Part shown: piece after piece, positions 14,630 through 31,326 of the stretch
Position numbering within the stretch: position 1 is the stretch's first letter
Layout of the letters: each line of letters opens with the position of its first letter
Origin: Candidatus Bathyarchaeota archaeon
GTDB taxonomy: Archaea > Thermoproteota > Bathyarchaeia > Bathyarchaeales > Bathycorpusculaceae
Assembly (NCBI GenBank): GCA_963827165.1
Contig: CAWGZR010000009.1
Span: 32,001-96,000, forward strand
Reading direction: 5' to 3'
Length of the DNA: 64,000 nt
Program-made: the position numbers and the translations under genes
The notes under the pieces: model-generated
What the model was told of the DNA's origin: nothing
Seen by the model: only the letters and a program-made list of their open reading frames with translations
Databases searched by the model: none

Positions 14630-15493
14630 TCAAGTATGGATTTCGCGCGCGCAATCTTTCTCTTCAAGGAGGCCTACTATGGTTTTTCTGGCTTCACCTA
14701 TGGTAAGAGGGTAACGCTCGTTTGTTATTACATTATTTTCCTTGCTTAGAATTTCGAACAGGTGTGTAATTCGAGGTAGACGTAGATCCATACCTCTGAT
14801 TAAGTCTGCTTGCGAAAAAATCTCGGCAGGTGACCCTTGTAGAACGACTTGACCTTTCTTGAGAATACATATTTTATTGGCAAAAAGTGGAACCAAATCC
14901 AAATCATGAGTTGCAATTATCAAAGTTATCCCCATTTCCTTGTTCAGCTGAAGCAGAAGTTTTAGGACTTTACTAGTCGTTCTAGGGTCTAGATTAGCCA
15001 TAGGTTCATCCAATATTATGATTTCAGGTTTCATCGCAAGCACTCCGGCAATGGCAGCCCGCCTTTTTTGCCCAGTGCTCAAGTTCTGTGTGCCCTTATG
15101 ATCTAACTCTGTGATTTCTGTGGCTTCCAAAGCCCATTTCACGCGTGCTTTAACTTCTTCAATTGGCAAGCCCAAGTTTATGGGTCCAAAAGCAACATCC
15201 TCGCCTACAGTTCGCGCAAATAATTGATCATCTGGATCTTGGAAAACCAAGCCCACTTTTTGCCGTACCCAATCAAGATTGTCGTTAACTACTTCTTTAC
15301 CTAGTACGACAACTTTTCCTGAAGTTGGCATTAGCAACCCGTTGAAATGATGAATCAGAGTAGATTTACCGGCACCATTAGGACCAAGGATAGCCATGTT
15401 TTCCCCTTTTTCCACAGCGAAGTTAAGGCTGTTAAGAGCTTTTGTACCATCATGATATGTGTATTCAAGATTAATTGTTTCAACTGCTTTCAA
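14630..15493 (-). CDS. cbiO: Cobalt ECF transporter ATPase
   Basis: GPNGAGKS, FQDPDDQLF, LSTGQKRR, LDEP. Confidence 0.9.
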   Translation of the reverse strand: MKAVETINLEYTYHDGTKALNSLNFAVEKGENMAILGPNGAGKSTLIHHFNGLLMPTSGKVVVLGKEVVNDNLDWVRQKVGLVFQDPDDQLFARTVGEDVAFGPINLGLPIEEVKARVKWALEATEITELDHKGTQNLSTGQKRRAAIAGVLAMKPEIIILDEPMANLDPRTTSKVLKLLLQLNKEMGITLIIATHDLDLVPLFANKICILKKGQVVLQGSPAEIFSQADLIRGMDLRLPRITHLFEILSKENNVITNERYPLTIGEARKTIVGLLEEKDCAREIHT

Positions 15494-15524
15494 TCTTTAT
15501 CTTTCTCCTAAATGTCTTCCATAA

Positions 15525-16343
15525 CTAAAAAAATATTCCATAATGAACGGTTCGAAGGACAAACATGTCAACAAGAACCATGCCGACGCAAACAGCTATG
15601 ACCAATACGCCAATAAAGGTATCGAGTTTTGGCAGTTTCTTTTTTTCCAAAGTGAACAAATTATATTTTCCCGTGTAACCTCTTGAAATCATTGCGTTTC
15701 CCACTTTTTCCGACCTTTCGAAGGCTCTTACCAGAAGTGAACCGGCAATATTGCCGATGTTAGTCAACTTACTGAAGTAACCCACGGACTTTGAGTGACC
15801 ACACCTTGACGCCTGCGCCCGATACATGCGTAGGCTTTCGTCAGAGAGTACACCGATGTACCTGAACATTATCATCATCGTGTCGATTATTACGCCGGGA
15901 ACACGGAACCACGCAAGTGAATCCATGGTAGAAGAGATTGGTGTAACCAGTATGAGTAAATTTAGGACGGAAACAGCAGAAATGGCCCGCGTGAATACTA
16001 ATACGCCAAAGTAGATTCCTTGAGAATATACTGGAATCGTTAATAGTGGAACTCTGGCTATTATTGTTGTGCCGTAAGTGAAGGGCATAATAATGCCGAT
16101 GAATGCTATCATGGCGAGTGGAATCAATAATCTGTCAATATAAACTTTGATTTTTGCTCTTGAATATACGACTAATCCAAAGCATGCTCCAAAAAAAAGG
16201 AGAGGGACATACCAATGGCTAAGGGCGACGATACAGAAGATTGCAGTTATGGCGCATAGCAATTTTATTCTTGTATCTAATCTATGTAAGGCTGAGTTTC
16301 CTTCAGTGTATTCTTCAAGGTTCAGATGTTCCACTAAAGACAT
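15525..16343 (-). CDS. cbiQ: Cobalt ECF transporter T component
   Basis: LHRLDTRIK, MFRYI, QASR, AMISRGY. Confidence 0.9.
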   Translation of the reverse strand: MSLVEHLNLEEYTEGNSALHRLDTRIKLLCAITAIFCIVALSHWYVPLLFFGACFGLVVYSRAKIKVYIDRLLIPLAMIAFIGIIMPFTYGTTIIARVPLLTIPVYSQGIYFGVLVFTRAISAVSVLNLLILVTPISSTMDSLAWFRVPGVIIDTMMIMFRYIGVLSDESLRMYRAQASRCGHSKSVGYFSKLTNIGNIAGSLLVRAFERSEKVGNAMISRGYTGKYNLFTLEKKKLPKLDTFIGVLVIAVCVGMVLVDMFVLRTVHYGIFF

Positions 16344-16346
16344 TAC

Positions 16347-16481
16347 TTAATTCACCTTTTGTTTCATTTTCCTTAGCTGCATTTTACGGCCTATCATTGT
16401 GAAAATAAAGAAACCCGATATGGTTCCTATTCCATTGATCGGATCTCCCGTAAGAAAAGGCAATATGGCCAAGATAATCAT
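16347..16481 (-). CDS. Uncalled 44-aa membrane peptide inside the cbiMNQO operon
   Basis: MIILAILPFLTGDPINGIGTISGFFIFTMIGRKMQLRKMKQKVN; GGAGG upstream; fills the N-Q gap. Confidence 0.6.
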   Translation of the reverse strand: MIILAILPFLTGDPINGIGTISGFFIFTMIGRKMQLRKMKQKVN

Positions 16482-16490
16482 TTTTAGTCT

Positions 16491-16790
16491 TTACCTCCCT
16501 TCCCGTGTTTTACCGAATATTGTGGGGTAGATATAGCCTCCTATTAAGCCTCCACAGCATCCCACTACAGTGAAGCCAACGTTTTCGCCGGTGTTTCCCC
16601 AATATTCGATGGTGAATGGATTGTAATACACTGTGCCGGTGCTGCCAGCTTTTGCGTTTACAGAGCCATCTGTCGAAGGTAATTGTGATGGTGCGCCGTC
16701 AATGTAATAATAACTTACGTACGCCATTATAACTAGAGCCGTAATGCATGCAATAAGGCAAATTATTGCGATTCTATTGAACTTGTCCAT
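16491..16790 (-). CDS. cbiN: Cobalt ECF accessory subunit (CbiN-like)
   Basis: Two TM helices with a TDG...YNPF...GEN loop and GGYI; directly after cbiM. Confidence 0.7.
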   Translation of the reverse strand: MDKFNRIAIICLIACITALVIMAYVSYYYIDGAPSQLPSTDGSVNAKAGSTGTVYYNPFTIEYWGNTGENVGFTVVGCCGGLIGGYIYPTIFGKTREGR

Positions 16791-17465
16791 TTAGCTCTTC
16801 ACCTCTGTTGTTGGCGGTTTTACCATCCACCATTTTAGTAGTTCAGGTCTATGGTTTGCTATGTACTGGATAGCTGCAGCCGTGAAGCCAAACTCCAAGA
16901 TTGCTAGCGGAATCTGAGTGGGCAAGTAACCAACCATGAATATGCCCCACCATGTAAACAAGTTGTTTGGGTGAAGTCCGATTGCAAGTTCAAAAGCTGC
17001 CGTAACGTATGTCATGAGGTCGCCTACTATGCCGCCGGTGCCTGCTGCGATCCAAAGTGGAGCTTTTAGTTTGTAGAGAAGAATAAAAATGCCGAAGCCT
17101 GTGAATGTTCCTACGATTCCCATGGACATGTCGTTTGCGCCGATGGTTGTTATTCCGCCGTGTCCGACGAATGTTTGGAAGAACAGGGCGATTGCCGATA
17201 TGACGGTTACTGGGAACGGTCCGATTAACATTGCTGCCATTGGTGTTCCGACGGGGTGTGAGCATGAACCTGTGACGGGAACTGGGATGTGCCAAACGGA
17301 TATTACGAAAACTGCTGCGCCCATTAAGCCGACTAAGGACATGTATTTCGGATCAGCTTTGCGTTTTCTAGATATCTGGATAGCTCCTACGGCTACGAAA
17401 ACTGCTGCTAATAAGTACCAAAATATGCACCATTCGGGTGACAATATTCCATCTGCTATATGCAT
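16791..17465 (-). CDS. cbiM: Cobalt ECF S component
   Basis: MHIADG, PVTGSCSHPVG, HGGITTIGAN, PTQIPLAILE. Confidence 0.92.
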   Translation of the reverse strand: MHIADGILSPEWCIFWYLLAAVFVAVGAIQISRKRKADPKYMSLVGLMGAAVFVISVWHIPVPVTGSCSHPVGTPMAAMLIGPFPVTVISAIALFFQTFVGHGGITTIGANDMSMGIVGTFTGFGIFILLYKLKAPLWIAAGTGGIVGDLMTYVTAAFELAIGLHPNNLFTWWGIFMVGYLPTQIPLAILEFGFTAAAIQYIANHRPELLKWWMVKPPTTEVKS

Positions 17466-17484
17466 GTTGTTTTTTCCCTCTCCT

Positions 17485-17504
17485 GTTGGATGGATAATCC
17501 AACC
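17485..17504. promoter_or_regulatory. Candidate operator, copy 1 (cbiM / regulator divergon)
   Basis: GTTGGAT-ggata-ATCCAAC palindrome between the TTTATAAA box (17511-17518) and the cbiM RBS; 17/20 identical to 26699-26718. Confidence 0.7.
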
Positions 17505-17557
17505 TGAAAGTTTATAAATTCTCGCTTAACTTAAGGTTAAGCTCAGGTTGAATTAAA

Positions 17558-18385
17558 TTGCGAAAGTCATCCGTTCCACTTCTCCTTCGGAGCAAAAGCG
17601 AATTCACTAGGTTCGAAATTCTTCTGGCGATCATGCGCGGTCAACCTCACGTTAAACAAAAGGATATAAGCGAAACGCTTGGAGTCACTATTCAAGCTGT
17701 CTCAAAATACTTCAAAAACCTCAAGAAAGAAGGCTACCTTGAAACTGGCTCAGAACGGGCAGATTATAGGCTGACACAGAAAGCGATCTCAGGAATACAG
17801 GCGGATTTGAAGAGCCTAGAGGGGTACATTATCTCAATTAAAGGTGAAATGAAATTTGAACGATCCATGCCGGCCATAGCGACGCGGCAGGTAAAAACAG
17901 GAGACGAAGTTGGCTTAGTTATGAAAGGAGGCGTCATTTATACCGTCGCCCCGGATGGCTCTGAAGCAAAAGGTACTGCAATGGAAGATGCCTCGCCTGG
18001 AGAAGACTTGGAACTAAAAAATTTACAGGGCAAATTGAAAGTTAAAGAAGGAAGAATTCTTATTGTAAAGTTACCAAGCATCAGAAAGGGTGGTTCACGA
18101 GTAGTTGACCTTGATAAAATCAAGGAATTCTACGATGAGTTCAAGCCTGACCGAGTTGGCGTAATGGGAGCAGTTGGAAGAGCCGTTTTAAACAAGCTAG
18201 GTCTTAAGGCAGATATCGAGTTTGGAATTAGCCGTGCTGCAGCAATAGCCGCTTCAAGGGGCTTAAATGTGCTCGTGCTGGTTGTTGGTAGGATGGCTAA
18301 CCGAATGACGGAAGAAATCGAAAATTTAAACATGAAAAGTGCAACCAACATATGCTATGAAATACGTGATGCAAAAAGCATCTAA
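17558..18385 (+). CDS. Archaeal winged-HTH regulator (COG1497-like) with a C-terminal putative sensing domain
   Basis: LRSKSEFTRFEIL...QPHVKQKDISETLGVTIQAVSKY HTH; C-terminal AASRGL motif. Confidence 0.75.
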   Translation: MRKSSVPLLLRSKSEFTRFEILLAIMRGQPHVKQKDISETLGVTIQAVSKYFKNLKKEGYLETGSERADYRLTQKAISGIQADLKSLEGYIISIKGEMKFERSMPAIATRQVKTGDEVGLVMKGGVIYTVAPDGSEAKGTAMEDASPGEDLELKNLQGKLKVKEGRILIVKLPSIRKGGSRVVDLDKIKEFYDEFKPDRVGVMGAVGRAVLNKLGLKADIEFGISRAAAIAASRGLNVLVLVVGRMANRMTEEIENLNMKSATNICYEIRDAKSI

Positions 18386-18578
18386 AACCATTTACACCCG
18401 AAAGCAATGTTTCAACTCACATTATGAGCAAATAGAGCAAAAAAGCAAGAGAGAAGTATTGCACAATTTGATTTCATTTGCCTTTTTGTGCACAACTTGT
18501 TGACGACAAATTTGTGGCTAACATGGAAAATGCAACAAATTCGCAAAAAACAGAGTAATGCGTACTTCTAAAAGGCGA

Positions 18579-19310
18579 CTACTGCTCGAGGTCATAACCT
18601 CGAGGTGTTACCATCTGGCGGTTCACTATTTTTGTGGTCGAATTACCTACGATAATGGTGGTTGCCATGTCTACGTTTTTAAGTATCAACTCTTTGAGCG
18701 AAGTTATGGTTGTCTCTTCACCGTTTCTTCCTGCTTGTTTCACAATCCCCACCGGAGTGCTTGGCTTTCTGTATTCGAGTAGGATTTCGTGAGCTTTAGC
18801 CAATGGTTTTTTGCGGCCTAAACTTTGAGGGTTGTACAGGACAATAACGAAGTCTGCCTCCGCCGCAGCCTTTAACCGTTTTTCAATTAGATCCCATGGC
18901 GTCAGAAGGTCGCTAAGACTAATTACTGCAAAATCTGTCACTAATGGCGCACCCAATTTAGATGCTGCAGCAGTCGCCGCTGTTACCCCTGGAATAATCT
19001 CTATAGGAACATCAGCTTTCTCAAACGCAGCGGTTTCCAATACCACGCCTGCCATACCGTAAACTCCCGGGTCACCACTGCTGACGACCACCACCAATTT
19101 GTCTTCCAAAGCTTTTGCAACGGATGTTTTGGCACGATCCACTTCTCGCCCCATGGTGCCAGAAATGACCTCTACGCCGGGTTTGATTATGTTTTGAATG
19201 AGTTCTATGTAGGTTTTGTAGCCTACGACGACGTCTGCGTCCTCGATGGCTTTTCGGGCTTTAGGCGTCATCTGCTCGACAGCGCCGGGTCCGATTCCGA
19301 CGACGCTTAT
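18579..19310 (-). CDS. cbiH: Cobalt-factor III C17-methyltransferase
   Basis: VVGYKTY, SSGDPGVYGMA, ISLSDLLTPW, LYNP, TPRGY. The SAM motif SVVGIGPG lies upstream of ATG 19271, implying a start at ATA 19310. Confidence 0.92.
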   Translation of the reverse strand: MSVVGIGPGAVEQMTPKARKAIEDADVVVGYKTYIELIQNIIKPGVEVISGTMGREVDRAKTSVAKALEDKLVVVVSSGDPGVYGMAGVVLETAAFEKADVPIEIIPGVTAATAAASKLGAPLVTDFAVISLSDLLTPWDLIEKRLKAAAEADFVIVLYNPQSLGRKKPLAKAHEILLEYRKPSTPVGIVKQAGRNGEETTITSLKELILKNVDMATTIIVGNSTTKIVNRQMVTPRGYDLEQ

Positions 19311-20392
19311 TCGCCTTCTGCTATCGCCACTGTTACGCCGTTCATTTTTTGTTTTTTCAAGATTAGATGTGGGTTTTTTCCTGCTATTATTAGTGCTGCT
19401 CGTTCACATACTCCTCCTACTCCAATTTTGTTTTGAACCATTTCTGAATCTGGAGACAAGTCTTCGTGTTTGAAGGCACGAAGCGTCTCTACGCTTATGA
19501 ATTCAAATTTTAAGTCCAACTTGTCAGCCGCATCCAACATGCCCCGCGAATTTTTCTTAAGATCAACTGTTGCCAAACCATCTATGCGTTCGAAAGTCAA
19601 ATTCGTTCGCTCCAAAGCAGAGCGCACGGCTTCTAAGATTTGGTCTCTTGTGATTTCTTTTCTTGCCCCTATACCCATGATTATTCGTTTTGGCTTCAAG
19701 ATGGTATAGGGTTTAACCGCCTTTTCATCCGTCAATAATTCTTTTGTTACTATTGCAGCTGCATTATACTTGCTCGTAATTTCCATTGCTTGAGCAAGGT
19801 TTTCAGCCTTTTCAACAATGTAACCATTAACCGCATTTGTCTGAATCTTTAGGTCGCCAACTAAAATAAGCGCTAGGTTTTCCCCATTTACCAAAATGGC
19901 GTTGACAGAGACGAGGCTTTCAGGATTCACAATCGACAAATGCATGATTCGGGCGAGTTCATCAACACTCTGCTTTCCCAAAGAATCCGATGCCGTGGTG
20001 ATTACGGCGGTGGCACCTATTCCTTCTGAGATTAGTCTTGTCAACTCGTTGGCGCCACCATAATGCCCCGATAACAAACTTATGACGAATTTTCCGTTGG
20101 CGTCGACGCCTATGATGGCGGGGTCCACCAGCTTCCCTTGTAAGTAAGGTGCAATGGCACGTAAGATTATGCCAGTTGCCATAACCGCGACGATTGCATC
20201 CACAGTGCTGTAGGTTTCTTTAATGAACTCGTCCAGTTTCTGTTCAAGTGGGTTTACATCTTTTAGCATGTACTTTTTGGGCGCGTAAACTTCACACTGC
20301 AATCCAATGCTAATGAGTGCCTTTTTGATTTTGAGTGCGGTTTCAACTCCCCGCTTCGTAATTGAGATAACAACTATTCCGCGGGTGTACAT
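19307..20392 (-). CDS. cbiG: Cobalt-precorrin-5A hydrolase
   Basis: MATGIILR, DPAI, SLLSGHYGGAN, VITTA, GVCERAA. Confidence 0.93.
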   Translation of the reverse strand: MYTRGIVVISITKRGVETALKIKKALISIGLQCEVYAPKKYMLKDVNPLEQKLDEFIKETYSTVDAIVAVMATGIILRAIAPYLQGKLVDPAIIGVDANGKFVISLLSGHYGGANELTRLISEGIGATAVITTASDSLGKQSVDELARIMHLSIVNPESLVSVNAILVNGENLALILVGDLKIQTNAVNGYIVEKAENLAQAMEITSKYNAAAIVTKELLTDEKAVKPYTILKPKRIIMGIGARKEITRDQILEAVRSALERTNLTFERIDGLATVDLKKNSRGMLDAADKLDLKFEFISVETLRAFKHEDLSPDSEMVQNKIGVGGVCERAALIIAGKNPHLILKKQKMNGVTVAIAEGE

Positions 20393-21156
20393 TATTCTGC
20401 GCCTTTGCGGAAGCCCGTAGTGAAAGTAGGGTCATAAAGCTTTGAAAGATCATATGATTTGGGATCCAAAACTTTACCAACGAAAATCAGCGCTGTTTCA
20501 GTTATGCCTGCAGCCTTCACTTTCTCGGCTATGTCACTCAAATTGCCTTTGACAATTTTCTGTTCGGGCCAAGTTGCCTTGTAAACCACTTGAGCGGGCG
20601 TATCTTTTGGATATCCACCTTTGAGGAGATTCTGGACAACCCGCGCGATATGTGGGGTGCCGAGAAATATGACCATTGTTGCTTGGTGTTTCGCAAGTTC
20701 GATGAGGCTTTCAGATTTAGGCACTGGTGTTCTGCCTTCGGGTCGCGTGATGATAACCGTTTGAGAAATATTTGGCAGGGTTAGTTCACGGTTAAGAGCG
20801 CCGGCTCCCCCTTGCAAGCAGCTGACTCCGGGGATTCGGAAGTACTCAATTTTCATTTCGTCAAGAAAGCTCATTTGTTCCTGTATGGCACCATAGAAGC
20901 TTGGGTCGCCGTCGTGGACTCGAGCAACGAGTTTGCCTTCTTTCAAAGCTTGAGCCATTACTTCCAGAACTTCTGGTAGGCTCATTTTAGCGCTATCATG
21001 CAGCGCTGCATCACTCTTGCAATACTTGAGGTATTCAGGATTCAGAAGTGAACCCGCGTAGATAACGACATCTGCTTTTTCGAGCCATTTTTTGCCTTTG
21101 AGAGTGATTAGCTCAGGGTCACCCGGACCTGCACCGATAAAAACAACTTTGCTCAT
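20392..21156 (-). CDS. cbiF: Cobalt-precorrin-4 C11-methyltransferase
   Basis: GAGPGDPELIT, YAGSL, GDPSFYGAIQEQ, SQTVIITR, KATWP. Confidence 0.95.
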   Translation of the reverse strand: MSKVVFIGAGPGDPELITLKGKKWLEKADVVIYAGSLLNPEYLKYCKSDAALHDSAKMSLPEVLEVMAQALKEGKLVARVHDGDPSFYGAIQEQMSFLDEMKIEYFRIPGVSCLQGGAGALNRELTLPNISQTVIITRPEGRTPVPKSESLIELAKHQATMVIFLGTPHIARVVQNLLKGGYPKDTPAQVVYKATWPEQKIVKGNLSDIAEKVKAAGITETALIFVGKVLDPKSYDLSKLYDPTFTTGFRKGAE

Positions 21157-21917
21157 GGTTTTTCAACCTGTTTCCAGTGAATGGGAACTTGGCTTCTTTT
21201 GACAATTGCTACAGAGAAGTAATCCTCTGTTATGTCCCAGCCTTGCACATCGCCGAGTTTTCCCACTAAGACCTTCTCCTCGGGCAAAGTACACCTTTTT
21301 ACTAAGGCTATCGTTGAGTTTTCCCCGAAACCGGCTCGCTGCAGAACATGAATTAATTCTTTTACGCGATATGCGCACTTCATGAACACGACGTTATCTG
21401 CGGATCTTGCAGTCTCCTCAATAAGGGCTGGATCTATGTCTGAAGGTATTATCGACACTGATTCCTCCCTTTCAGCCAAAGGCAATTTGGCGCTTGCGGC
21501 AGCAGCAGTAACCGAAGTTACACCTGGAATTATTTCCAGCTCAACCTCAGGGTAGGTTTCTTTCACGAATTCATAAAGATAAAGAAACGTGCTGTAAAGC
21601 ATGGGGTCGCCCAACGTGATGAATGCGATAAGCTTGCCTGCTTTGGCCATGGATGAGACAATAGTGGCGTCTTTGACCCAAAGCTTTCTGTTGTTCATCT
21701 CATCTTTGGTCATGGGGAAGACGAGTTCGATAATTTCCGGTGGTTTCGCTCGTTCTTGAAGAATTTGTTGGACCATCCCGAGGGCTATGCTAGGCTTTTT
21801 TGCATGCGACTTTGGAACGCAAAGAACGTCAGCTAATTTCAGGGCTTTCACTGCCTTTAGAGTTAATAGTTCTGGATCTCCCGGACCGACACCAATTCCT
21901 ATGAATTTTCCAGTCAA
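21153..21917 (-). CDS. cbiL: Cobalt-factor II C20-methyltransferase
   Basis: GVGPGDPELLTLKA, FPMTKD, TLGDPMLYST. Confidence 0.93.
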   Translation of the reverse strand: MTGKFIGIGVGPGDPELLTLKAVKALKLADVLCVPKSHAKKPSIALGMVQQILQERAKPPEIIELVFPMTKDEMNNRKLWVKDATIVSSMAKAGKLIAFITLGDPMLYSTFLYLYEFVKETYPEVELEIIPGVTSVTAAAASAKLPLAEREESVSIIPSDIDPALIEETARSADNVVFMKCAYRVKELIHVLQRAGFGENSTIALVKRCTLPEEKVLVGKLGDVQGWDITEDYFSVAIVKRSQVPIHWKQVEKP

Positions 21918-21927
21918 ACTTTTCCAC

Positions 21928-22530
21928 CTATTCGTTAGTAGCCGATATTATGGTGATTGGATTCCTTGCCAACATCATTGTTCCCGCACCAGCCGTTTTC
22001 CCTTTAGCTGCAAAAATCTCAACAACGTCGACTTCTTTGAAACCTGATTTTTTGATTTCTTCCAAAGCGGCAGTTGCTGTTTCCAGCAGTATGGCATTTA
22101 TGACTATTCTTCCATTTGGCTTCAACTTCCTGTGGGCTATTCGTATCACCGACCTAAGCGAGTGACTTCCGCCTATAATGAAGGCATCAACTGCAGGGAG
22201 ATTAGCCAGAGCCTCAGGTGCAGCTCCGTGAGTAACTTGAACAATGCTCTGCAAACCAAACTTCGCAACGTTGCCCGAGGTTAGTCGCACGGCTTCTTCG
22301 TCCTCATCTATAGAGTAGACTTTTCCTTTTGAACCAACCTGCAGAGCTGCTTCAACTGTCAAGCCGCCGGTGCCGCAGCCGACATCCGCCACTACGGACC
22401 CTTCACAGAGACGAGCCTTCGAAATCGTAATCACTCGAATTTCTTCTTTAGTTGGCCCTGGAACATTATCACTTTGAGTAAACATTTCGTCAGGTACGCC
22501 AGGAGTTTTGTAATTCCACATATCAACCAT
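21928..22530 (-). CDS. cbiT: Cobalt-precorrin-6B C15-methyltransferase (decarboxylating)
   Basis: PGVPD, TKEEIR, DVGCGTG, GRIVINA, ARNPI. Confidence 0.93.
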   Translation of the reverse strand: MVDMWNYKTPGVPDEMFTQSDNVPGPTKEEIRVITISKARLCEGSVVADVGCGTGGLTVEAALQVGSKGKVYSIDEDEEAVRLTSGNVAKFGLQSIVQVTHGAAPEALANLPAVDAFIIGGSHSLRSVIRIAHRKLKPNGRIVINAILLETATAALEEIKKSGFKEVDVVEIFAAKGKTAGAGTMMLARNPITIISATNE

Positions 22531-22531
22531 C

Positions 22532-23203
22532 TCACATTTCGGTTTTTGAATTTCTATTTATCATCATTACACATAGCGGGGAAAAACTCAATTTTGGAAC
22601 TCCCATTAAGGTGGTCTCGAGTACGCTTTCGTTGTTTAGAGTCAAATTCTCGCAGATAGAAACAGGAGTCTCCTTGTCTATACCCGCTAAGAGAAGGTAT
22701 TTTGCGACTTCACGCGGAGGAAAAGTCTTAGGCTCAGGAAGCAACATGACAGTTTTTCCAGTCTTAACCGCTTCGGCAAGCGCTCGTTTCTTTTCAACAT
22801 CTACCCCGTCATGGAAAGCGAAAATAACTGCATCGTCCCAGCCTATGCAGAGCCGAGCCGCACATGCCTGCATGGAACTTACGCCAGGAATAACTTTAAT
22901 ATCGACATCTTTGTCCATTGACCTTCTCAAGAGTGCCCCTAACAGCCCCGAAAAACCCGGATCACCTGTCGACAAAAGCGCTACTACTTTTCCATTATGG
23001 GCTGAAACGACTAAATGTTTTAGTCCTTCCTCCATGTTCTTGGCAGTCAACGCCAAGGTTTCTCCTTTAATGTCCTCTCGAAATAGGTTTAAGCTGCGTT
23101 CAGCACCGATTATCACCTGCGAAGCTTGAACTGCTTTTCTTGCGGCTGGAGTTACATAGTCGGGTGAGCCTGGACCCGTTCCGACTATGTAGACTTTAGT
23201 CAC
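22532..23203 (-). CDS. cbiE: Cobalt-precorrin-7 C5-methyltransferase
   Basis: VGTGPGS, STGDPGFSG, IPGVSS, CENL. Confidence 0.9.
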   Translation of the reverse strand: MTKVYIVGTGPGSPDYVTPAARKAVQASQVIIGAERSLNLFREDIKGETLALTAKNMEEGLKHLVVSAHNGKVVALLSTGDPGFSGLLGALLRRSMDKDVDIKVIPGVSSMQACAARLCIGWDDAVIFAFHDGVDVEKKRALAEAVKTGKTVMLLPEPKTFPPREVAKYLLLAGIDKETPVSICENLTLNNESVLETTLMGVPKLSFSPLCVMMINRNSKTEM

Positions 23204-24282
23204 GGTTCTAAACCTCTTGCGTTTTCGTCGACTCCGAGTATTTTTCCTTCCATGGAGACGATTATGATGCTAAATTTGATTTTGTTCTTTGTCCGATCCG
23301 TAACTCGCGCGTGGATCTTTTGGGCTATTCTATCGTATGTAGCCCTTACCAGGTTAATTTTACTGAGGAGTTGGGTGGCTTCTTCCGTGGTGTTCGACTG
23401 CAGTACCGCGTTTATGGTTTCTGTGTCTGCACCTACGGAGGCAGCGTAAGCCGCAATGACCTCGTTTCTGGCATCACCCATTTTGTAATGAGTGTTGAAG
23501 ATTCCTGCTGCCAACTTCACCATCTTGCCCGAGTGACCCAGAAACACAATTTCCTTAACTCCCTTCTCAGCTGCCTTTTCCAGCATGTAACCCACGAAGT
23601 CCCCCGTCTGCACTACCTGGTCAGCTGGAACATTAAACAGCTGCTTAGCTATCCTTTCGCCAATGTTTCCTGGAACAAAGAAAACCCGCTCGTAGCCGTG
23701 GGCTATAGCTACGTCAATCTGAGGAACCAACGAGCGCCTGCACGCTTCCAGCGACAGAGGCTTTACCACGCCTGTCGTGCCAAGGACGCTTAAGCCACCG
23801 ACTATGCCCAGTTTTGCATTGAGCGTTTTTTCTGCTATTTTTTCGCCATCTGGAATAGATATTGTGACTTCAGCGCCCTTGCCCTCAGGCAATGCCTCTC
23901 TGACGGCGTCTGTTATCATTTTTCTTGGAACAGGGTTAATCGCCGATTCACCCACTGGAACTTGGATGCCTGGCTTGGTCACTTTGCCTATGCCCCCACC
24001 GTTTTTTATGGTGATTTTGCCGTCGTCAGTTAGCTTTACAGTTGCGGTTATGTCCATGCCGTTGGTGACGTCAATATCTTCCCCTGCGTCTTTCACGACC
24101 GTAGCTACTGCGGAATCGCCTAGTTTCTTGCAGTTCTTGACGGGTATTTCAAAGCGGATGCCAATGGGCGTAGGAATAACAACTTTGTCAACGCAGTTGC
24201 TGGTTAGCGTGATTAATGCGGCTTTGGCTGCGGCCGCTGCGCACGAACCGGTAGTGATTCCATACTTCAGAAACTTTGACAT
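23200..24282 (-). CDS. cbiD: Cobalt-precorrin-5B C1-methyltransferase
   Basis: GITTGSCAAAA, KDAGEDIDVT, AINPVP, GGLSVLGTTG. ATG 24282 (MSKFLK) preferred. Confidence 0.95.
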   Translation of the reverse strand: MSKFLKYGITTGSCAAAAAKAALITLTSNCVDKVVIPTPIGIRFEIPVKNCKKLGDSAVATVVKDAGEDIDVTNGMDITATVKLTDDGKITIKNGGGIGKVTKPGIQVPVGESAINPVPRKMITDAVREALPEGKGAEVTISIPDGEKIAEKTLNAKLGIVGGLSVLGTTGVVKPLSLEACRRSLVPQIDVAIAHGYERVFFVPGNIGERIAKQLFNVPADQVVQTGDFVGYMLEKAAEKGVKEIVFLGHSGKMVKLAAGIFNTHYKMGDARNEVIAAYAASVGADTETINAVLQSNTTEEATQLLSKINLVRATYDRIAQKIHARVTDRTKNKIKFSIIIVSMEGKILGVDENARGLEP

Positions 24283-24283
24283 T

Positions 24284-25369
24284 TCAATCCTCTTTTTTAG
24301 TCTCTGCCATCGACAGCAACGCGTTGAAAATGGCCACGGCAATTGTGCTTCCGCCTTTGCGTCCTTTAATAATTATATATGGAATAGGCAATTTAGAAAT
24401 GACTTCTTTGGATGCTGCAGCACCCACGTAACCCACCTCAGTGGCTACAATCAGGGCAGGCTTTGCCGTTCCAGCCTCAACGGCTCGGGCCAATTCAAAT
24501 GCGGCTGTTGGCGCGTTTCCAATGAGGAATATTGAGCCATTTACGCCGTCTTCTACAGCTAAACGCATAGCCGCAGTTGACCGTGTGATTGACTCGTCAT
24601 CTGCCATTTTGGTGGCGCGTTGGTCGTCGATGTAGGTGAGAATTTTTCCACCGAACTTTTCCACTCTAGCTTCTTTTATCCCAGCTTTAATCATTTTAAC
24701 ATCTGTGACTATTTTTGAGCCCGCTTTTATGGCGGCGACTCCCGCGTCGACTGCTTTGTCACTGATTACCAACAGCTTGGCAAATTCAGGGTCGGCGGTT
24801 GTGTGAACTACACGTTCGATTATTGCTGCATGCTTCTTGGGGGCTTTCGTTAAAATCTCTTGAATTTCAGGTCGGATGAGTTTCATGCTATCTTCGAATA
24901 TCTGCTTAGAAGCAGCAGGCGCATTTGTGTTTTTATTTTCATTTGCACTTGAACTAAAAGGGACATGATTATGTTCGCGGACTTCTTGACCAAGTGCTTT
25001 TAATGCTTTTTCTTCCAAGATTACGGCAATACATTCGTCCGCACCAATAGGTTCCCCATAAACCAATTGAATTCCACTTGCAGAGAGTTGAGATTCCTTG
25101 TCTTTTACGCCTATGAGTTCTGGGATCTCCTGCGTGGTGTGCACTCCAGGCGCCAAGAAAGCAGGGATCAAGACGATTTTTTTGACGCCTTTTTTGGCGA
25201 TGGCATCTATCGCTTCGGGGATGGTAGGCGTGTTCCTCATCATAAAGGAAATTTCGACTACCTTAAAGCTGGAGCGTTTACGCATAATGTCTGCTATTTT
25301 CTCGAGGTTTTCTCGGTTGTGTGGAAGCTTGCTTCCATGTCCAATTAGTACTAATCCAACGTTTTCCAT
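24284..25369 (-). CDS. cbiC: Fusion of short CbiX chelatase (N-terminal) and cobalt-precorrin-8 methylmutase CbiC (C-terminal)
   Basis: GHGS and PGVH chelatase histidines; a linker; then RVVHTTAD, TDVKM, IGNAPTA, VGYVGA and GRKGGS. Confidence 0.92.
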   Translation of the reverse strand: MENVGLVLIGHGSKLPHNRENLEKIADIMRKRSSFKVVEISFMMRNTPTIPEAIDAIAKKGVKKIVLIPAFLAPGVHTTQEIPELIGVKDKESQLSASGIQLVYGEPIGADECIAVILEEKALKALGQEVREHNHVPFSSSANENKNTNAPAASKQIFEDSMKLIRPEIQEILTKAPKKHAAIIERVVHTTADPEFAKLLVISDKAVDAGVAAIKAGSKIVTDVKMIKAGIKEARVEKFGGKILTYIDDQRATKMADDESITRSTAAMRLAVEDGVNGSIFLIGNAPTAAFELARAVEAGTAKPALIVATEVGYVGAAASKEVISKLPIPYIIIKGRKGGSTIAVAIFNALLSMAETKKED

Positions 25370-25384
25370 TTCAAAATCTCCTTT

Positions 25385-26677
25385 TTATTCAAGCTGATCT
25401 GTTTTTACCCCAATCAACTTTAAAGCAACCTCGATCAGTTCCGAGTCATCCTTTGCAGCGGCTTGCCGCAAGTTTTCGACTAAAGGCAGAAAAGTCTGTT
25501 TCAGCAAAATGCTGGTTAAATTATCAACAATTTTCTTTTCACGTTCATCCAAGTCGCTCATCATGTTAAGAGCTTTTAAAAGCTCTCTTTGACGGATTTC
25601 TTCTGTTTGAGACAACAATTCGGAAATAATTTTGCTAACATTCTCAGTTTTGAGAGCACGTTCAATTGTGATTAGTTCTTCTTCTATTATTCTTGAAGCA
25701 TCTTTCACGCTTTTTACTCGCTCCATTTTGTTCTTTTCAGCGATTAGGTGGAGGTCATCGATGTTGTACAGTTTTACGTTTGGGAGCTCATCGGTTCCTT
25801 TTTCTACGTTTCGGGGATTGGAAAGGTCAATTACAAGCAAGGTGTCTTTGTTCTGACGAGATACCAGGAATTTTGATACGTTCTCTTTTGTTAGGAGGTA
25901 GTGTGGTGCAGATGTGCAACAGAAAACAACATCGGAATCAACGAGAACTTCTCCAAGCTTGTCAAATTTTACTGCTTGGCCGTGAAGTTCCTCAGCCAGT
26001 CTCTGGGCACGCTCATGAGTTCTGTTAGCGATGAATATTGGGCTGAGGCAGCGCCTAGCCATGGCTTTAGCGACAAGAGTGCCTGTTTCTCCGGCGCCCA
26101 TTACTAGAATTTTCTTTTCATTTAAGCTGCCCAGCAGATTTTCTGCAAGCTCAACTGCCGCTGAACCTACTGAGACTGCGCCTTTGTTAATTCCTGTTTC
26201 TTTTCTTACTCGCCTGCCAACGTTAACTGACCTATTAAACAATTGCTTGAGGACGGGCCCTGCTCCATTAGTTTTCTCGGCTTCAAGGTAAGAGTCCCAA
26301 ACTTGGTTGATAACTTGGTCCTCACCAATCACCATTGATTCTAATCCTGATGTGACTCGTAAAAGGTGATTCAAAGCTTCTTTATTTATCGAATATTCGA
26401 TTGCTTTTGAAGCGGCTTCAATCTGAATCGGGGTCCTTTGGGCGAGATATTCAAAAGCGGCCTTCGCGGTTTCTTCTCCTTTTTGGCTGACCAGGTATAA
26501 TTCTACTCGATTGCACGTTTGAAGAAGAAGACACTCTTCAACGCCTGCGATGGCAGAAACCTCTTTGTACGCAGTTTCCTTGTCTTTGAACGCGACCGCT
26601 TCTAAGAGTGGAACGTGCGCTGTTTTATGAGTAATTCTAACGTTAACGATGTTAACGTTTCTGGCAGATGCCTGCAT
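25385..26677 (-). CDS. hemA: Glutamyl-tRNA reductase
   Basis: QTCNRVE, SGLESMVIGEDQ, GAGETG, ANRT, DLSNPR. Confidence 0.96.
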   Translation of the reverse strand: MQASARNVNIVNVRITHKTAHVPLLEAVAFKDKETAYKEVSAIAGVEECLLLQTCNRVELYLVSQKGEETAKAAFEYLAQRTPIQIEAASKAIEYSINKEALNHLLRVTSGLESMVIGEDQVINQVWDSYLEAEKTNGAGPVLKQLFNRSVNVGRRVRKETGINKGAVSVGSAAVELAENLLGSLNEKKILVMGAGETGTLVAKAMARRCLSPIFIANRTHERAQRLAEELHGQAVKFDKLGEVLVDSDVVFCCTSAPHYLLTKENVSKFLVSRQNKDTLLVIDLSNPRNVEKGTDELPNVKLYNIDDLHLIAEKNKMERVKSVKDASRIIEEELITIERALKTENVSKIISELLSQTEEIRQRELLKALNMMSDLDEREKKIVDNLTSILLKQTFLPLVENLRQAAAKDDSELIEVALKLIGVKTDQLE

Positions 26678-26698
26678 CGACCGCTAAACCCCTCCATC

Positions 26699-26718
26699 AT
26701 TGGATGGATAAACCGACC
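26699..26718. promoter_or_regulatory. Candidate operator, copy 2 (hemA-cbi / amidase-hem divergon)
   Basis: ATTGGATGGATAAACCGACC, placed between an AT-rich TATA-like box and the RBS as copy 1 is. Confidence 0.7.
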
Positions 26719-26787
26719 AGCTTAAATAAAAGCTTTGCTTAATTACCCAAAAGAGGGGTTAAAGGCATAACAAAACTTATTCACAGA

Positions 26788-28344
26788 GTGGGGTTGGCAT
26801 ATTTGCCCGGGTCTTTGCCCTGCTTCGAAACGTTTGGGAACCTACCAACTGATCTCGTTCGCGAAGACGGACTTGTGGAGGGAAAAACAGCCTCAGATGT
26901 GCTTGACATGATAATTATTCCAGGGGGAAGCCTCGTCGAGTCAAACACCCTCAAAGAAGATCTTGCAAGAGAGATTTGCAAAATGGCTGACTGCAGTAAA
27001 TTTGTTTTAGGAATTTGCTCGGGCTTTCAGATTCTTTCGAATGGAACTGATATCGGACGCTTGTCGGCTTATCCAATCATGCGTAAAGGGCTTGGTTTGA
27101 TTGATGCAGAGTTCACGCCTCTGATTTGCACGGATCAAGTTAAAGCCACAGTTATCGGAACTAGTTGCCTCACAGATGCAGTGGGTTCTGAAGTATCCGG
27201 TTTCCATTGCCACACTTACGGTAACGTTGTCACCCACAAAAAAGCAAAACCCATCCTAGTTTCCCACACTAAGCGACTAAATTATCATGAGAACGCAAAA
27301 GATCTTGTTTCCGGAATCTCGAACGATGAGGGCAACGTTGTGGGCGTAATGATACATGGTTTGCTAGACAGAAACCCACTCATTATAGAAGGCATCCAAA
27401 AGTCACTAGACATAAGCAACGAGGAGCTTCGGGGAATCAGAGCGGCGAACGGAAAATTGCTGCATCAGATTAAGGCTGAAATTGGAATTTCAACCAATGT
27501 TTACGAATGTGAAGCTGTTAAAAAACAAAGTACGCATAGGGCTTTGTTGGTAACTGCGTTAGGAAGTGGTTCTGGCAAAACCTTCATAGTTACTGGGTTG
27601 GCAGGCACGCTCAAAAAGAAAGGTTTCAAGGTGGGAGCCGTCAAAGTTGGCGGCGACATCCGAGACGTTGTCCCCGCACTTTACCTGATCAAGGAGCCCA
27701 TAAGAGATTATTCTTCAATTAGAGTTGGGCAAAGCGGATGGATGATAGGCAACGAATCAGTCAAGCAGGCAGAAAAAGAATACGACTTCCTCATCATCGA
27801 GGGAGCCATGAACGCCTTTACGGGGCTATTGAATGAAAAAGTCATGCGCCCTTCTTCCACCGCGGAAATAGCCGCAGCACTTGGAGTTTCCACTGTAGTA
27901 GTAGTTACCTGCGATATGGAAGGGATCGAAGGCGCTTTAGTCAACGTTCTGAACTATGTTAATCTTCTGAAGAATCTCGGAGTAAAAACAGAAGGCGTAA
28001 TCCTCAACAAGGTGCATACAAGCTACTTAACAGAAAACGTTAGGCGATTCATAGAACAAACCTTAACCAATGCGGGGGTTGAGTTGCTGGGCATTGTTCC
28101 CCGAGTCGATGTTGAAGGACGAGGTGCAATTCCGGAGATAGAAATCAAATATGAAGAGTTCGGCGCCAAAGCCATAGAAGTCATAGAAAACTCATTGAAC
28201 ATAGACAAGATCATCCATATAGCCGAACCAACCCGGATAACTCAACTGGACTATAATGCTTTAACGGAAAAATTTAGAAACACACTGTTAGGTAATATTT
28301 CCTCAGAGGCTTCAAAAAGTGGGAAAACTGAAAAATGCTCATAG
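26788..28344 (+). CDS. Domain-permuted CbiA/CobB-like amidase: N-terminal class I glutaminase, C-terminal P-loop synthetase
   Basis: IPGGS, GICSGFQ, GFHCH, IHG; then GSGSGKT, KVGGD, IEGAM, STAEIA, GVILNK. Possible ATA start at 26767. Confidence 0.8.
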   Translation: MGLAYLPGSLPCFETFGNLPTDLVREDGLVEGKTASDVLDMIIIPGGSLVESNTLKEDLAREICKMADCSKFVLGICSGFQILSNGTDIGRLSAYPIMRKGLGLIDAEFTPLICTDQVKATVIGTSCLTDAVGSEVSGFHCHTYGNVVTHKKAKPILVSHTKRLNYHENAKDLVSGISNDEGNVVGVMIHGLLDRNPLIIEGIQKSLDISNEELRGIRAANGKLLHQIKAEIGISTNVYECEAVKKQSTHRALLVTALGSGSGKTFIVTGLAGTLKKKGFKVGAVKVGGDIRDVVPALYLIKEPIRDYSSIRVGQSGWMIGNESVKQAEKEYDFLIIEGAMNAFTGLLNEKVMRPSSTAEIAAALGVSTVVVVTCDMEGIEGALVNVLNYVNLLKNLGVKTEGVILNKVHTSYLTENVRRFIEQTLTNAGVELLGIVPRVDVEGRGAIPEIEIKYEEFGAKAIEVIENSLNIDKIIHIAEPTRITQLDYNALTEKFRNTLLGNISSEASKSGKTEKCS

Positions 28345-28979
28345 ACCTAAACCTTGAAGGAAAACGCGTCGTAGTAGTGGGTGGAGGTTCAGAAGGGTAC
28401 AGAAAAACAGTTGACTTCTTAGACGCAGGAGCCAAAATTTTGGTTGTAAGCCAATCCTTTTCGAGCAACATGACAAAGCTGTATAGCGAAAAAAAGATCT
28501 CAATTCTAAAAGAAAAAATTGAAAACGCAGAATCTTTCATGGACAGTTTTGACCCTAAGCCAGACATAGTTGTCGCAGTCACAAGTAACAGCGAATTCAA
28601 CTCCAGCCTAATTGACTGCGCGAAATCGTCGGGATGCATGGTTTACGCTCCGGACAATCCTTTGGTTAGCGATTTTGCTCTTCCCGCGACGGCAAGTGTT
28701 GGGGACGTAAGAATTGCAGTTTCAACAGGCGGGAAAAGCCCTGCAATGGCAAGCGTCCTGAGAAAACGGATTGAGAAAATGATTACTGCCGAGGATCTGC
28801 TTCAAATAAAACTCCAGGAGTATTTGCGGGATCTTTTGAAAAGGCAGGGGGGCGACCAAAAAGTTCGTAAAGAACTCCTCTACAAAGTGATCGAGGACTT
28901 GGATATTCAAAGGCTTCTCAAGGAGAATAAGTTTGAAGAAGCCAAGGAAAAAGCGGCAGATATTGTTCAAAAGACTTAA
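28335..28979 (+). CDS. sirC: Precorrin-2 dehydrogenase (SirC/Met8-like, CysG N-terminal part)
   Basis: VVVVGGG, DFALPA, AVSTGGKSPAMA. Confidence 0.9.
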   Translation: MLIDLNLEGKRVVVVGGGSEGYRKTVDFLDAGAKILVVSQSFSSNMTKLYSEKKISILKEKIENAESFMDSFDPKPDIVVAVTSNSEFNSSLIDCAKSSGCMVYAPDNPLVSDFALPATASVGDVRIAVSTGGKSPAMASVLRKRIEKMITAEDLLQIKLQEYLRDLLKRQGGDQKVRKELLYKVIEDLDIQRLLKENKFEEAKEKAADIVQKT

Positions 28980-29043
28980 TTAAAAAAATCAAAGTAACAA
29001 TTTCACAATAACGTTAAGTTAAAAAGATTTAGGAGATAACAGC

Positions 29044-30024
29044 ATGAGTTTCCCACAAGTTAGAATGCGAAGGCTCAGAAGAACAGCTGCGTTGAGAAAT
29101 ATGATAAACAACGTTAAGCTTCAGCCAAGTGACATAATTTATCCTCTTTTTGTTGATGAAAACGCCAAAAAACCAATTCCTATAAAGAGCATGCCGGGAG
29201 TTTATCGGCTCCCCCTCAACGACGTAGTGAATGATGTTCGACATGCGATGGAGCAGGATGTTAAATCGGTTATTCTTTTTGGAATACCCTCCAAGAAGGA
29301 TGAAACGGGGTCGGGTGCATTCGCGACCGATGGAATTGTTCAGAAGGCGATTAAGAAACTGAAAGATGAGTTTAGTGAAGAATTAGTTGTCATAGCCGAC
29401 ATTTGCCTCTGCGAATACACGAGTCATGGACACTGCGGCATCCTAAAGGATGAGCAAGTTCAAAATGATCAAACGCTTGCAATCCTACAGAAAGTAGCAG
29501 TCAGCCAAGCACAGGCTGGAGTTGACATTGCAGCACCTTCCGCCATGATGGATGGACAAGTTGAATCTATAAGAGAAGCTCTGGATGATTCGGGTTTTGA
29601 CCAAACCGCAATAATGGCTTACTCATCAAAGTACGCCTCCAGCTTCTACGGTCCATTCAGAGACGCAGCCGACTCAACACCTAAGTTTGGCAACCGAAAA
29701 AGTTACCAGATGAGTTGGGGAAATCAGAAGGAAGCTCTCAGAGAAATCGAGTTAGACGTTAACGAAGGTGCAGACATTGTCATGGTGAAGCCGGCGTTAG
29801 CCTACATGGACATAATAAGCTTAGCTAAAAAGAAATTTGACGTGCCAGTCGCAGCCTACAACGTAAGCGGGGAATATGCCATGATAAAAGCTGCCGCACA
29901 AAATGGGTGGATTGACGAGAAAACGGCTGCTCTTGAAGTTCTAACAGGAATTAAGCGTGCTGGCGCAGACACGATTATAACCTACTTTGCAAAAGACGTG
30001 AAAGAATGGCTGAATCAAACTTAG
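29044..30024 (+). CDS. hemB: Porphobilinogen synthase
   Basis: RMRRLR, CLCEYTSHGHCG, FYGPFRDAA, MVKPAL. Confidence 0.97.
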   Translation: MSFPQVRMRRLRRTAALRNMINNVKLQPSDIIYPLFVDENAKKPIPIKSMPGVYRLPLNDVVNDVRHAMEQDVKSVILFGIPSKKDETGSGAFATDGIVQKAIKKLKDEFSEELVVIADICLCEYTSHGHCGILKDEQVQNDQTLAILQKVAVSQAQAGVDIAAPSAMMDGQVESIREALDDSGFDQTAIMAYSSKYASSFYGPFRDAADSTPKFGNRKSYQMSWGNQKEALREIELDVNEGADIVMVKPALAYMDIISLAKKKFDVPVAAYNVSGEYAMIKAAAQNGWIDEKTAALEVLTGIKRAGADTIITYFAKDVKEWLNQT

Positions 30025-31325: not shown

Positions 31326-31326
31326 A

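Follow-up and report, generated by a model that had tools for sequence, protein, structure and literature searches.

A candidate B12 operator shared by cobamide promoters in Bathyarchaeia, probably read by a factor other than the regulator encoded beside it

Here we analyse a stretch of 64,000 nucleotides (the window) from a Candidatus Bathyarchaeota archaeon genome (GenBank assembly GCA_963827165.1, contig CAWGZR010000009.1, positions 32,001 to 96,000 of the forward strand), in which two divergent promoter regions of cobalamin (B12) genes carry similar copies of a palindrome, the B12 box. One copy lies between a cobalt transporter operon of the energy-coupling factor (ECF) type and the gene of a putative winged helix-turn-helix (wHTH) regulator, here called REG; the other lies between a hemA-cbi operon and a cbiA-hem operon (Table 1). 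The original prediction, made from the sequence alone, had joined these elements into a regulon in which REG, described as COG1497-like, represses the boxed operons on sensing cobalt or a corrinoid and so does the job of the bacterial B12 riboswitch. We combine scans of the host genome and its relatives with gene neighbourhoods and structure models of REG to ask what the box is and which protein may read it.

The two 20-mers that had been pointed out, GTTGGATGGATAATCCAACC (17485-17504) and ATTGGATGGATAAACCGACC (26699-26718), are present at those positions, agree at 17 of 20 positions, and the first is a 7-5-7 palindrome, as proposed. What is conserved is not the whole 20-mer but a 17-bp core, the 8-1-8 palindrome GGTTGGAT-N-ATCCAACC. 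Each 20-mer adjoins a TATA-like box, again as described, and the one that cbiM and REG have in common is kept as TTATAAA/CATATAAA in 12 orthologous intergenic regions. On the minus strand the 20-mers stand 19 nt (copy 1, cbiM ATG at 17465) and 21 nt (copy 2, hemA ATG at 26677) from the start codons, so that the placement before minus-strand operons holds and the range of 20-22 nt given for it does not quite. The REG gene is divergent from copy 1, on which the open reading frame (ORF) map and Pfam agree, and on its other side copy 2 borders a plus-strand operon, cbiA-sirC-hemB-hemL-hemC-cobA-hemD, which is divergent from hemA and goes unmentioned in the original prediction. The transporter operon had been named cbiMNQO; CbiM, CbiQ and the ABC ATPase are borne out, and the gene in the cbiN position has no family match. 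No cobalamin riboswitch had been recognized by eye, and none was found with Rfam, RF00174 included, which gave no family match at gathering score in the 64-kb window and none at E ≤ 1 in positions 14000-30000.

Table 1 Features of the two window loci and the five box sites of the host genome. TATA-like boxes and palindromes were read from the sequence.
Feature	Coordinates	Strand	Basis or remark
Cobalt ECF-type transporter operon	14630..17465	-	Pfam CbiM, CbiQ, ABC_tran
cbiO	14630-15493	-	Pfam ABC_tran
cbiQ	15525-16343	-	Pfam CbiQ
99-aa small gene in cbiN position	16491-16790	-	No family match in Pfam or NCBIfam
cbiM	16791-17465	-	Pfam CbiM
B12 box copy 1 (box site 1), GGATGGATAATCCAACC	17488..17504	.	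cbiM promoter, REG divergent; 1 mismatch to GGTTGGAT-N-ATCCAACC; between shared TATA-like box and cbiM ATG
Palindromic TATA-like box, TTTATAAA	17511..17518	.	Common to divergent cbiM and REG
Palindrome 2, GCTTAAC-TTAAG-GTTAAGC	17524..17542	.	Between TATA-like box and REG start; candidate REG (auto)operator
REG, 275 aa, TTG start	17558..18385	+	wHTH, beta-barrel, DUF7839; PF25211 (5e-20), MarR_2/HTH_24
hemA-cbi operon	18579..26677	-	Pfam and ORF map
TP_methylase	18579-19271	-	Pfam
cbiG	19307-20392	-	Pfam
TP_methylase	20392-21156	-	Pfam
Five ORFs	21153-24342	-	ORF map; the names cbiD/E/T/L are those of the original prediction only
cbiX-cbiC fusion (361 aa)	24284-25369	-	Pfam
hemA	25385-26677	-	GlutR
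B12 box copy 2 (box site 2), GGATGGATAAACCGACC	26702..26718	.	hemA promoter, cbiA divergent; PWM 23.7, rank 5 in genome
TATA-like box, CTTAAATAAAAG	26721..26732	.	2-3 nt off box copy 2
cbiA-hem operon, divergent	26788..33819	+	NCBIfam, Pfam and ORF maps
Box site 3			btuF-type binding protein gene, then FecCD permease and ABC ATPase genes
Box site 4			446-aa PQQ beta-propeller gene, divergent from btuF
Box site 5			Operon: PF01902 protein, archaeal-type cobT (DBI_PRT), cobS, cobY-like nucleotidyltransferase (NTP_transf_3)

The window holds two matches to the palindrome at up to three mismatches, compared to 0.29 expected, and 2 of 100 shuffles also reach two. The significance of the box rests on scans of the whole genome and across genomes. 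We searched the entire host assembly (3.13 Mb in 14 contigs; genomes, contigs and loci carry the labels G, C and L below, the host being G000) for near copies of the two 20-mers and found three further sites, two in a single intergenic region on contig 4 and one on contig 5, which have in common only 17 of the 20-mer's positions and of which that at C4:233863 is a perfect palindrome. At up to two mismatches there are four palindrome sites in the genome, every one at a B12 promoter. A position weight matrix (PWM) built from 40 distinct sites in relatives, with the host's own sites left out, gives the five boxes, which fall in four intergenic regions, scores of 29.5 (copy 1, the highest in the genome), 28.1, 28.0, 25.3 and 23.7, compared to 16.9 for the next best site and a total of 20 sites at 12 or more. 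The five top sites all lie at B12 promoters rather than at many unrelated ones, a point that the original prediction proposed to check. Sites with exactly three mismatches number 19, of which 14 are inside long ORFs, near the roughly 12 estimated for random sequence, so this level is mostly noise; of four intergenic ones that we fetched, only C5:352265 reaches a PWM score of 12 (12.7). Two near matches to the 20-mers (C9:274323 and C6:35648) fall inside genes, and we attribute them to chance.

All five boxes have the same promoter setting. The palindrome begins 2-6 nt downstream of a TATA-like box and, in four of the five cases, ends up 15-24 nt from the start codon, the distance being about 226 nt at the cobT operon; both orientations with respect to the regulated gene occur, as a dimer site would be expected to show. 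In archaea, the transcription start usually follows the TATA box at a fixed short distance, which here would place it inside the palindrome. Archaeal repressors that prevent the recruitment of polymerase use such an arrangement, and these features favour a DNA operator over a hairpin in a leader RNA.

To see how far the box extends, we compared 41 genomes, namely the host, 24 congeneric genomes and 16 that represent 11 further families of the order. Allowing two mismatches, they hold 108 palindrome sites, compared to 16 for a reversed-pattern control. Among 30 loci fetched around such sites, 25 hold a B12-type gene near the site by our own reading, and in 20 a blastx search finds a relative of a host B12 protein adjoining it (PF01902-cobT in seven, btuF in six, the PQQ propeller in four, a CbiO-like ABC ATPase in two and hemA/cbiA in one). 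Another locus has a weak PF01902-like match and another an ATPase match that spans the site; the eight without any blastx match comprise three with ECF S-component genes, one with a cobD-type aminotransferase gene and cbiB, and four that are unexplained. In three of the other families, ECF S-component genes have boxes before them. Relatives hold copy 1 in the equivalent position, and copy 2 has an orthologous box at hemA in G007, G014 and G015 and also in a subclade of four genomes (G006, G008, G017 and G018), where the hemA box is kept (PWM 15.9-21.9) and the cobT-operon box is gone. Conservation of the motif in related genomes, which the original prediction had set as a check, is thus found, with the same gene families boxed repeatedly. 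On these comparisons, the candidate operator is conserved across the Bathyarchaeia order sampled, and we regard it as very probable that the box serves a B12 regulon as its operator.

In the same subclade (loci L241-L244, from G017, G008, G018 and G006), the box abuts the hemA start codon directly after the TATA box (..TTTATCCAACCATG), which suggests that hemA mRNA is leaderless there, with its start inside the putative operator. G005 has 14 boxes, the most of any genome, together with two REG copies, CobN and a ChlI-like chelatase, and CbiC was not found in it; its boxes also precede genes for a cohesin-domain protein and a prenyltransferase-like alpha/alpha-toroid protein (L146 and L147), and its regulon is extended. 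The 446-aa PQQ beta-propeller gene (G000:C4; L001 2716-4056, minus strand) is boxed in the host and in four relatives (L116, L122, L132 and L133) and often precedes a HemN-like radical SAM gene; its product may be an unrecognized corrinoid-related surface protein.

A dimeric DNA-binding protein sitting on the box would cover the transcription start and block recruitment of RNA polymerase. Across the five sites it would shut off cobalt uptake (cbiMNQO) and de novo corrin synthesis (hemA-cbi and cbiA-hem), as well as corrinoid uptake (btuFCD and the PQQ propeller gene) and nucleotide-loop assembly (PF01902-cobT-cobS-cobY).

The distribution of REG differs from that of the box. Counted as a full-length orthologue or a PF25211 match above the cut-off, REG is found in 13 of the 41 genomes, as is CbiC, with an overlap of 12 (REG only in G005, CbiC only in G004, which is 71% complete); of 80 REG loci taken from a genome collection, at least 52 have cbiM in divergent orientation, as judged by a crude N-terminal motif. 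REG thus tracks de novo synthesis and cbiM. Boxes, in turn, are present in nine genomes in which no intact REG was found (G001, G002, G003, G010, G012, G013, G019, G022 and G023), where they sit before btuF, the PQQ propeller gene, the cobT operon or cobD-cbiB. One of these, G003, is assembled as one contig and has four boxes, every one at such a promoter, and no control site. G003 and G019 retain pseudogene remnants of REG (L139 7300-7449 and L142 2054-2203, respectively) that comprise the last 50 or so codons with stops before them and are 66-72% identical to REG; CbiC was not found in either genome. Outside the genus, REG was not found in 15 of the 16 genomes from other families. As the box is kept in genomes without an intact REG, a shared factor is the more economical reader, and REG is probably either not the reader or not the only one.

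What does accompany REG is a different element, palindrome 2. Of 12 orthologous regions upstream of REG, 11 have the same succession of elements (cbiM ATG, a purine-rich stretch at the ribosome-binding site, box, TATA, palindrome 2, GGTTGA and REG start), and palindrome 2 there takes the form GTTTAAC-N4/5-GTTAAAC; the twelfth region, from G040, has neither palindrome 2 nor a recognizable cbiM alongside. Across the 80 REG loci, a loose palindrome 2 pattern (TTAAY-N4-6-KTTAA) occurs in 58, compared to 1.1% of shuffles, and the box in 30 at a PWM score of at least 15 and in 43 at a score of at least 10, compared to 0.03% of shuffles. Palindrome 2 stands without a good box in 37 of the 80 loci and the reverse holds in nine, so that by these pattern counts palindrome 2 follows REG more closely than the box does. 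A stricter pattern has eight matches in the host genome, one of them at a B12 locus, REG's own, and with it no second copy was found at any other host B12 locus. These observations make REG a plausible, if still tentative, binder of palindrome 2.

The same upstream region has a further element, AGGTTGA (17545-17551 in the window), conserved in 12 of 12 relatives at a distance of 7-20 nt from the REG start. An in-frame TGA within it rules it out as the start codon; it may serve in ribosome binding, as a start-site element or as a part of the operator. Elsewhere in the host genome, G000:C10:121031-121090 contains three CTTAAC-N3-GTTAAA palindromes at 21-bp spacing, which look like a tandem operator array for another factor.

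REG homologues more distant from the host's own widen the picture. A profile made from distant members (about 30-40% identical to REG) retrieved 61 metagenome loci, in 32 of which the PQQ propeller gene adjoins (L181-L221), mostly in divergent orientation (with Pfam run on one), and in one of which btuF-btuC-btuD lies directly upstream. The intergenic regions that they share contain another palindrome, TCAAGT...ACTTGA, with arms about 22 nt apart and just before a TATATAAG box, in 20 distinct versions in 31 loci; judged by these motifs, the putative operator is not constant across the REG family. The second REG copy of G005 lies by a btuF-like gene and CobN, and the gene divergent from REG in G040 is of putative ChlI type, named from its translation. 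Neighbourhoods of the COG1497-like gene, which the original prediction had suggested analysing, thus tie the family to cobamide and cobalt genes in several lineages, with the qualification that the gene itself was found in only the 13 genomes counted above.

What REG may sense was approached through its domains and predicted fold. Its DUF7839 domain (PF25211) scores 72 bits, the cut-off being 27 (E 5e-20, residues 162-259), and its N-terminal wHTH 33 bits (MarR_2) and 32.4 bits (HTH_24), both above their cut-offs; structural matches of the wHTH are to MarR and PadR wHTH proteins (Z 10-11.4). Close homologues that carry a name all come from Bathyarchaeota or Bathyarchaeia metagenome-assembled genomes. 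An AlphaFold2 model built from 58 diverse homologues (predicted local distance difference test (pLDDT) 95.3) consists of a wHTH with a long helix (residues 1-97), a small beta-barrel (about 104-172) and an alpha/beta domain (about 166-271). Searches with the whole model return wHTH proteins only, except for one match to CbiL (Z 9.6). A separate model of the last 176 residues (pLDDT 85.3) was compared with 48,161 chains, and its best 17 matches were all N-terminal halves of the tetrapyrrole-methylase family, with Z 7.0-9.1, a root-mean-square deviation of 2.5-3.6 Å and 95-103 aligned residues, compared to Z of at most 6.7 for unrelated folds, although a Z near 9 is only modestly above the usual background of the search tool. 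These best 17 include CbiL (three times), SUMT, CysG, CobJ, CbiE, CobF, CbiF, diphthine synthases and RsmI-like proteins. The prediction of this fold, which had been suggested as a check, points to a resemblance to the N-terminal half of tetrapyrrole methylases. Foldseek against the PDB had no match at E ≤ 0.001 for either the whole or the C-terminal model, the best for the latter being at E 0.013, with CysG at probability 0.99. REG has no PF00590 match, and only about 110 residues, one half of the two-half methylase architecture, are involved; in the model, the C-terminal domain is a methylase fold resemblance, not demonstrated homology, and REG is not a PF00590 member.

With only the N-terminal half of a methylase present in the model, catalytic activity is unlikely. 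After the first strand comes the conserved loop LPSIRKGGSR, in the place that the glycine-rich loop occupies in methylases, a correspondence taken from alignment ranges and not at residue level. There is no histidine or cysteine among the invariant or nearly invariant columns of the 58 homologues, and the Fe_dep_repress profile, which stands for the N-terminal domain of DtxR/MntR-type metal-sensing repressors, scores 21.1 bits on REG, below its cut-off of 26. The lack of conserved histidine and cysteine argues against direct Co2+ sensing, so that this half of the original proposal is disfavoured, whereas the methylase-like fold favours a tetrapyrrole or other organic ligand; a tetrapyrrole or corrinoid is a possible ligand of REG, slightly less probable than the proposed binding of REG to palindrome 2. 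No paper naming COG1497 or DUF7839 was found in our literature searches, consistent with the earlier remark that the family has no assigned regulon. Two peat metatranscriptome runs share 0.10 and 0.06 of words, and their contigs span only 18139-18288 and 18319-18579, that is, the 3' part of REG and the adjoining region; they leave the promoter uncovered and speak to presence in an RNA library only.

Taken together, the explanation we prefer, and hold to be reasonably probable on the sequence comparisons, is an order-wide box with an unassigned reader, and REG acting locally through palindrome 2. The reader of the box would be a factor common to the box-bearing genomes, which is more likely than the neighbouring REG. 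REG would be a local regulator of the cobalt-acquisition step; palindrome 2 appears to lie just downstream of REG's TATA box and to overlap both the REG start region and the B recognition element side of the cbiM promoter, so that REG bound there may autoregulate and also affect cbiM, sensing an organic ligand, possibly a tetrapyrrole, through its methylase-like C-terminal domain. For the original proposal that a protein repressor replaces the riboswitch, this means that a shared protein-type operator at five B12 promoters is supported, and that REG as its reader is not.

The most direct alternative is the original one, that REG itself is a B12- or corrinoid-responsive repressor at all five boxes, with an unrelated factor in its place, or relic boxes left, in the genomes that lack it. 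REG is divergent from a boxed promoter, a box with at most four mismatches lies 62-101 nt upstream of it in 41 of the 80 loci (66 nt in G040), its family adjoins genes of the boxed type elsewhere (the PQQ propeller gene and, once, btuFCD), the genome with two copies is also the one with most boxes, and its sensor domain resembles half of a corrin-pathway enzyme. We nevertheless find this reading unlikely, because B12 promoters retain the box in at least nine same-genus genomes in which no intact REG was found and also in other families, where 15 of 16 genomes yielded no REG, many REG loci have palindrome 2 and no good box, and lineage-B homologues of REG carry a quite different palindrome. Conversely, REG is intact in G006, G008, G017, G018 and G024, where the boxes at cbiM and the cobT operon are degenerate or gone. 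Another candidate for the shared reader is a winged-helix protein with a DUF4443 domain (PF14544; G000:C5:679270-679560, about 211 aa), extra copies of which would have been recruited to B12 loci. It shares only the wHTH with REG (hhalign probability 76%). PF14544 was found in 36 of the 41 genomes, including all box-bearing ones without REG except G010 and G021. Copies lie in G030 divergently from a boxed ECF S-component gene, in G007 one gene away from a strong box (PWM 30.8), in G040 immediately after REG and in G019 next to the REG remnant and the PQQ cluster; the two same-genus genomes with no box in the scan at up to two mismatches (G006 and G024) have no DUF4443 match. The main copy, however, has a conserved setting beside a putative GPN-type GTPase gene, with no box at up to three mismatches nearby in 29 of 30 loci, G006 keeps a hemA box (PWM 21.9) and G010 four boxes although DUF4443 was found in neither, G027, G033 and G038 have the protein and no box, and a near-universal gene carries little phyletic signal; as the reader of the box this protein is improbable, a shade more so than REG. 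A third candidate, a 155-aa protein with a weak wHTH match beside a putative Alba-like ORF of 95 aa, was dropped, its sequence being read as Lrp/AsnC-type.

That the palindrome acts as RNA, as a hairpin in the 5' untranslated region to which a protein or small RNA binds or as an unrecognized riboswitch, is very improbable. The inverted repeat is perfect or nearly so, it stands near the start codon and part of it may be transcribed, but with a start at the expected place inside it the RNA would contain the distal half only, a spacer of 1 nt is too short for the full hairpin to form, the box occurs in both orientations relative to the gene, and in G011 (cobD-cbiB) and G040 (REG) the orientation of the TATA-like box puts it upstream for the flanking gene; Rfam, as said, finds no match. 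A 680-nt block conserved beside boxes in G005, G007 and G040 was also considered as RNA and rejected: it has no Rfam match, and its other strand reads as a putative ChlI-type AAA+ chelatase gene. Least probable of all, to the point of being scarcely credible, is a chance likeness or a general promoter feature unconnected with B12. The number and intragenic location of the three-mismatch sites and of the two 20-mer near matches are what chance would give; yet all four sites at up to two mismatches and all five top PWM sites lie at B12 promoters, and the excess over control sites in the 41 genomes comes with the same gene families boxed genome after genome.

Several points weigh against the explanation we prefer. 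The consensus used in the genome scan came from the host's own sites, so the counts at up to two mismatches are partly circular, which the relatives-only PWM reduces and does not remove, and kin genomes are not independent, so that co-occurrence counts overstate the support. TATA boxes and the mode of repression were read from the letters only. The loss of REG in G003 and G019 may be recent and the boxes there relics, and the position of REG homologues beside PQQ propeller and btuFCD genes, types that carry the box in the host, connects that family with the regulon, so that REG stays a candidate reader. In G040, a strong box lies directly upstream of the REG TATA, 66 nt before REG, with no palindrome 2, which elsewhere could be a promoter element rather than an operator. 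Finally, hhalign of REG against the window's five methylases gives a probability of 0.5%, leaving the methylase likeness at the level of the fold. A more specific version of the preferred explanation, which is speculative and which we consider doubtful, has two inputs meeting on one bidirectional promoter with a single palindromic TATA box, a corrinoid-responsive repressor at the box and REG at palindrome 2, with its sensor a relic of the N-terminal half of a corrin methyltransferase, tuning cobalt import. The ligand of REG would then be a tetrapyrrole awaiting cobalt, or a corrinoid, and REG would repress its own gene and, as palindrome 2 is upstream of the TATA/BRE of cbiM, tune or activate cobalt import, as well as the chelatase genes of relatives, according to pathway flux. 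If true, this would be a new family of enzyme-derived, tetrapyrrole-sensing archaeal transcription factors.

Further genes at the window loci fill in the setting. The divergent operon at copy 2 encodes, in order, a cbiA-type a,c-diamide synthase, a precorrin-2 dehydrogenase (sirC-like), hemB, hemL, hemC, a uroporphyrinogen methyltransferase and hemD. Its a,c-diamide synthase (26788-28344, plus strand, 518 aa) has the glutamine-amidotransferase domain N-terminal to the CbiA domain (NF004921 type), and just 3' of the operon lies an archaeal Nre gene (Nre_N/Nre_C; 34893-36227, plus strand). A PF01902 (Diphthami_syn_2) paralogue at 12846-13514 (plus strand) lies beside cbiO, and a second one (L003 4238-4924, plus strand) is the first gene of the boxed cobT-cobS-cobY operon, an arrangement kept in at least seven relatives; we know of no cobamide role for this family.

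Archaea make and use large amounts of cobamides and lack the B12 riboswitch. To our knowledge, no B12-responsive archaeal transcription factor has been identified; our literature search found no paper on an archaeal B12 operator. Against this background, the box provides a sharply defined candidate operator and regulon in a widespread uncultured group, with five clean sites in the host and the same families boxed across 41 genomes. It points to candidate B12-related roles for the PQQ propeller, the PF01902 ATPase-like gene and ECF S-components, and leaves two concrete candidate regulators, REG and the DUF4443 protein. It also allows the attractive but probably wrong assignment of REG to the box to be corrected before it is copied into annotation.

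A comparative-genomics study of 2003 reportedly proposed an archaeal 'CBL-box' for a hypothetical B12 regulator. Like the box, it is reported to be a conserved DNA signal before cobalamin genes of archaea without B12 riboswitches, with no regulator assigned; Bathyarchaeia genomes did not exist in 2003. ThiR is an archaeal vitamin regulator with a wHTH fused to a domain derived from a pathway enzyme, and NrpR-type archaeal repressors bind just downstream of the TATA box. With NrpR, the box has in common a palindromic candidate operator right after a TATA-like box, copied at several operons and predicted to overlap the start, whereas its sequence and regulon differ. NrpR is described as an archaeal repressor at inverted-repeat operators of nif and glnA (PMC3087415), and TrmB as controlling cobalamin genes in Halobacterium salinarum (PMC2710871, PMC3794607). 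TrmB is a like case of an archaeal transcription factor whose control reaches cobalamin biosynthesis, but it is global, sugar-responsive and of another family, whereas the box regulon comprises B12 genes only (5 of 5 top sites). RbkR is presented in PMC8305020 as an archaeal vitamin regulator with a wHTH and an enzyme-like domain. REG resembles it in having a wHTH fused to the fold of half a pathway enzyme, beside pathway genes and where the bacterial riboswitch is missing; unlike in RbkR and ThiR, its domain has no detectable sequence relation to the enzyme and corresponds to the N-terminal half only. In scope, the box regulon is like that of the bacterial cobalamin riboswitch (RF00174), whose place it would take: both cover cobalt transport (cbiMNQO), corrin synthesis, btuFCD-type uptake and nucleotide-loop assembly, and in both every operon carries its own copy of the control element, which in Bathyarchaeia would be a DNA palindrome at the promoter and not a structured leader RNA.

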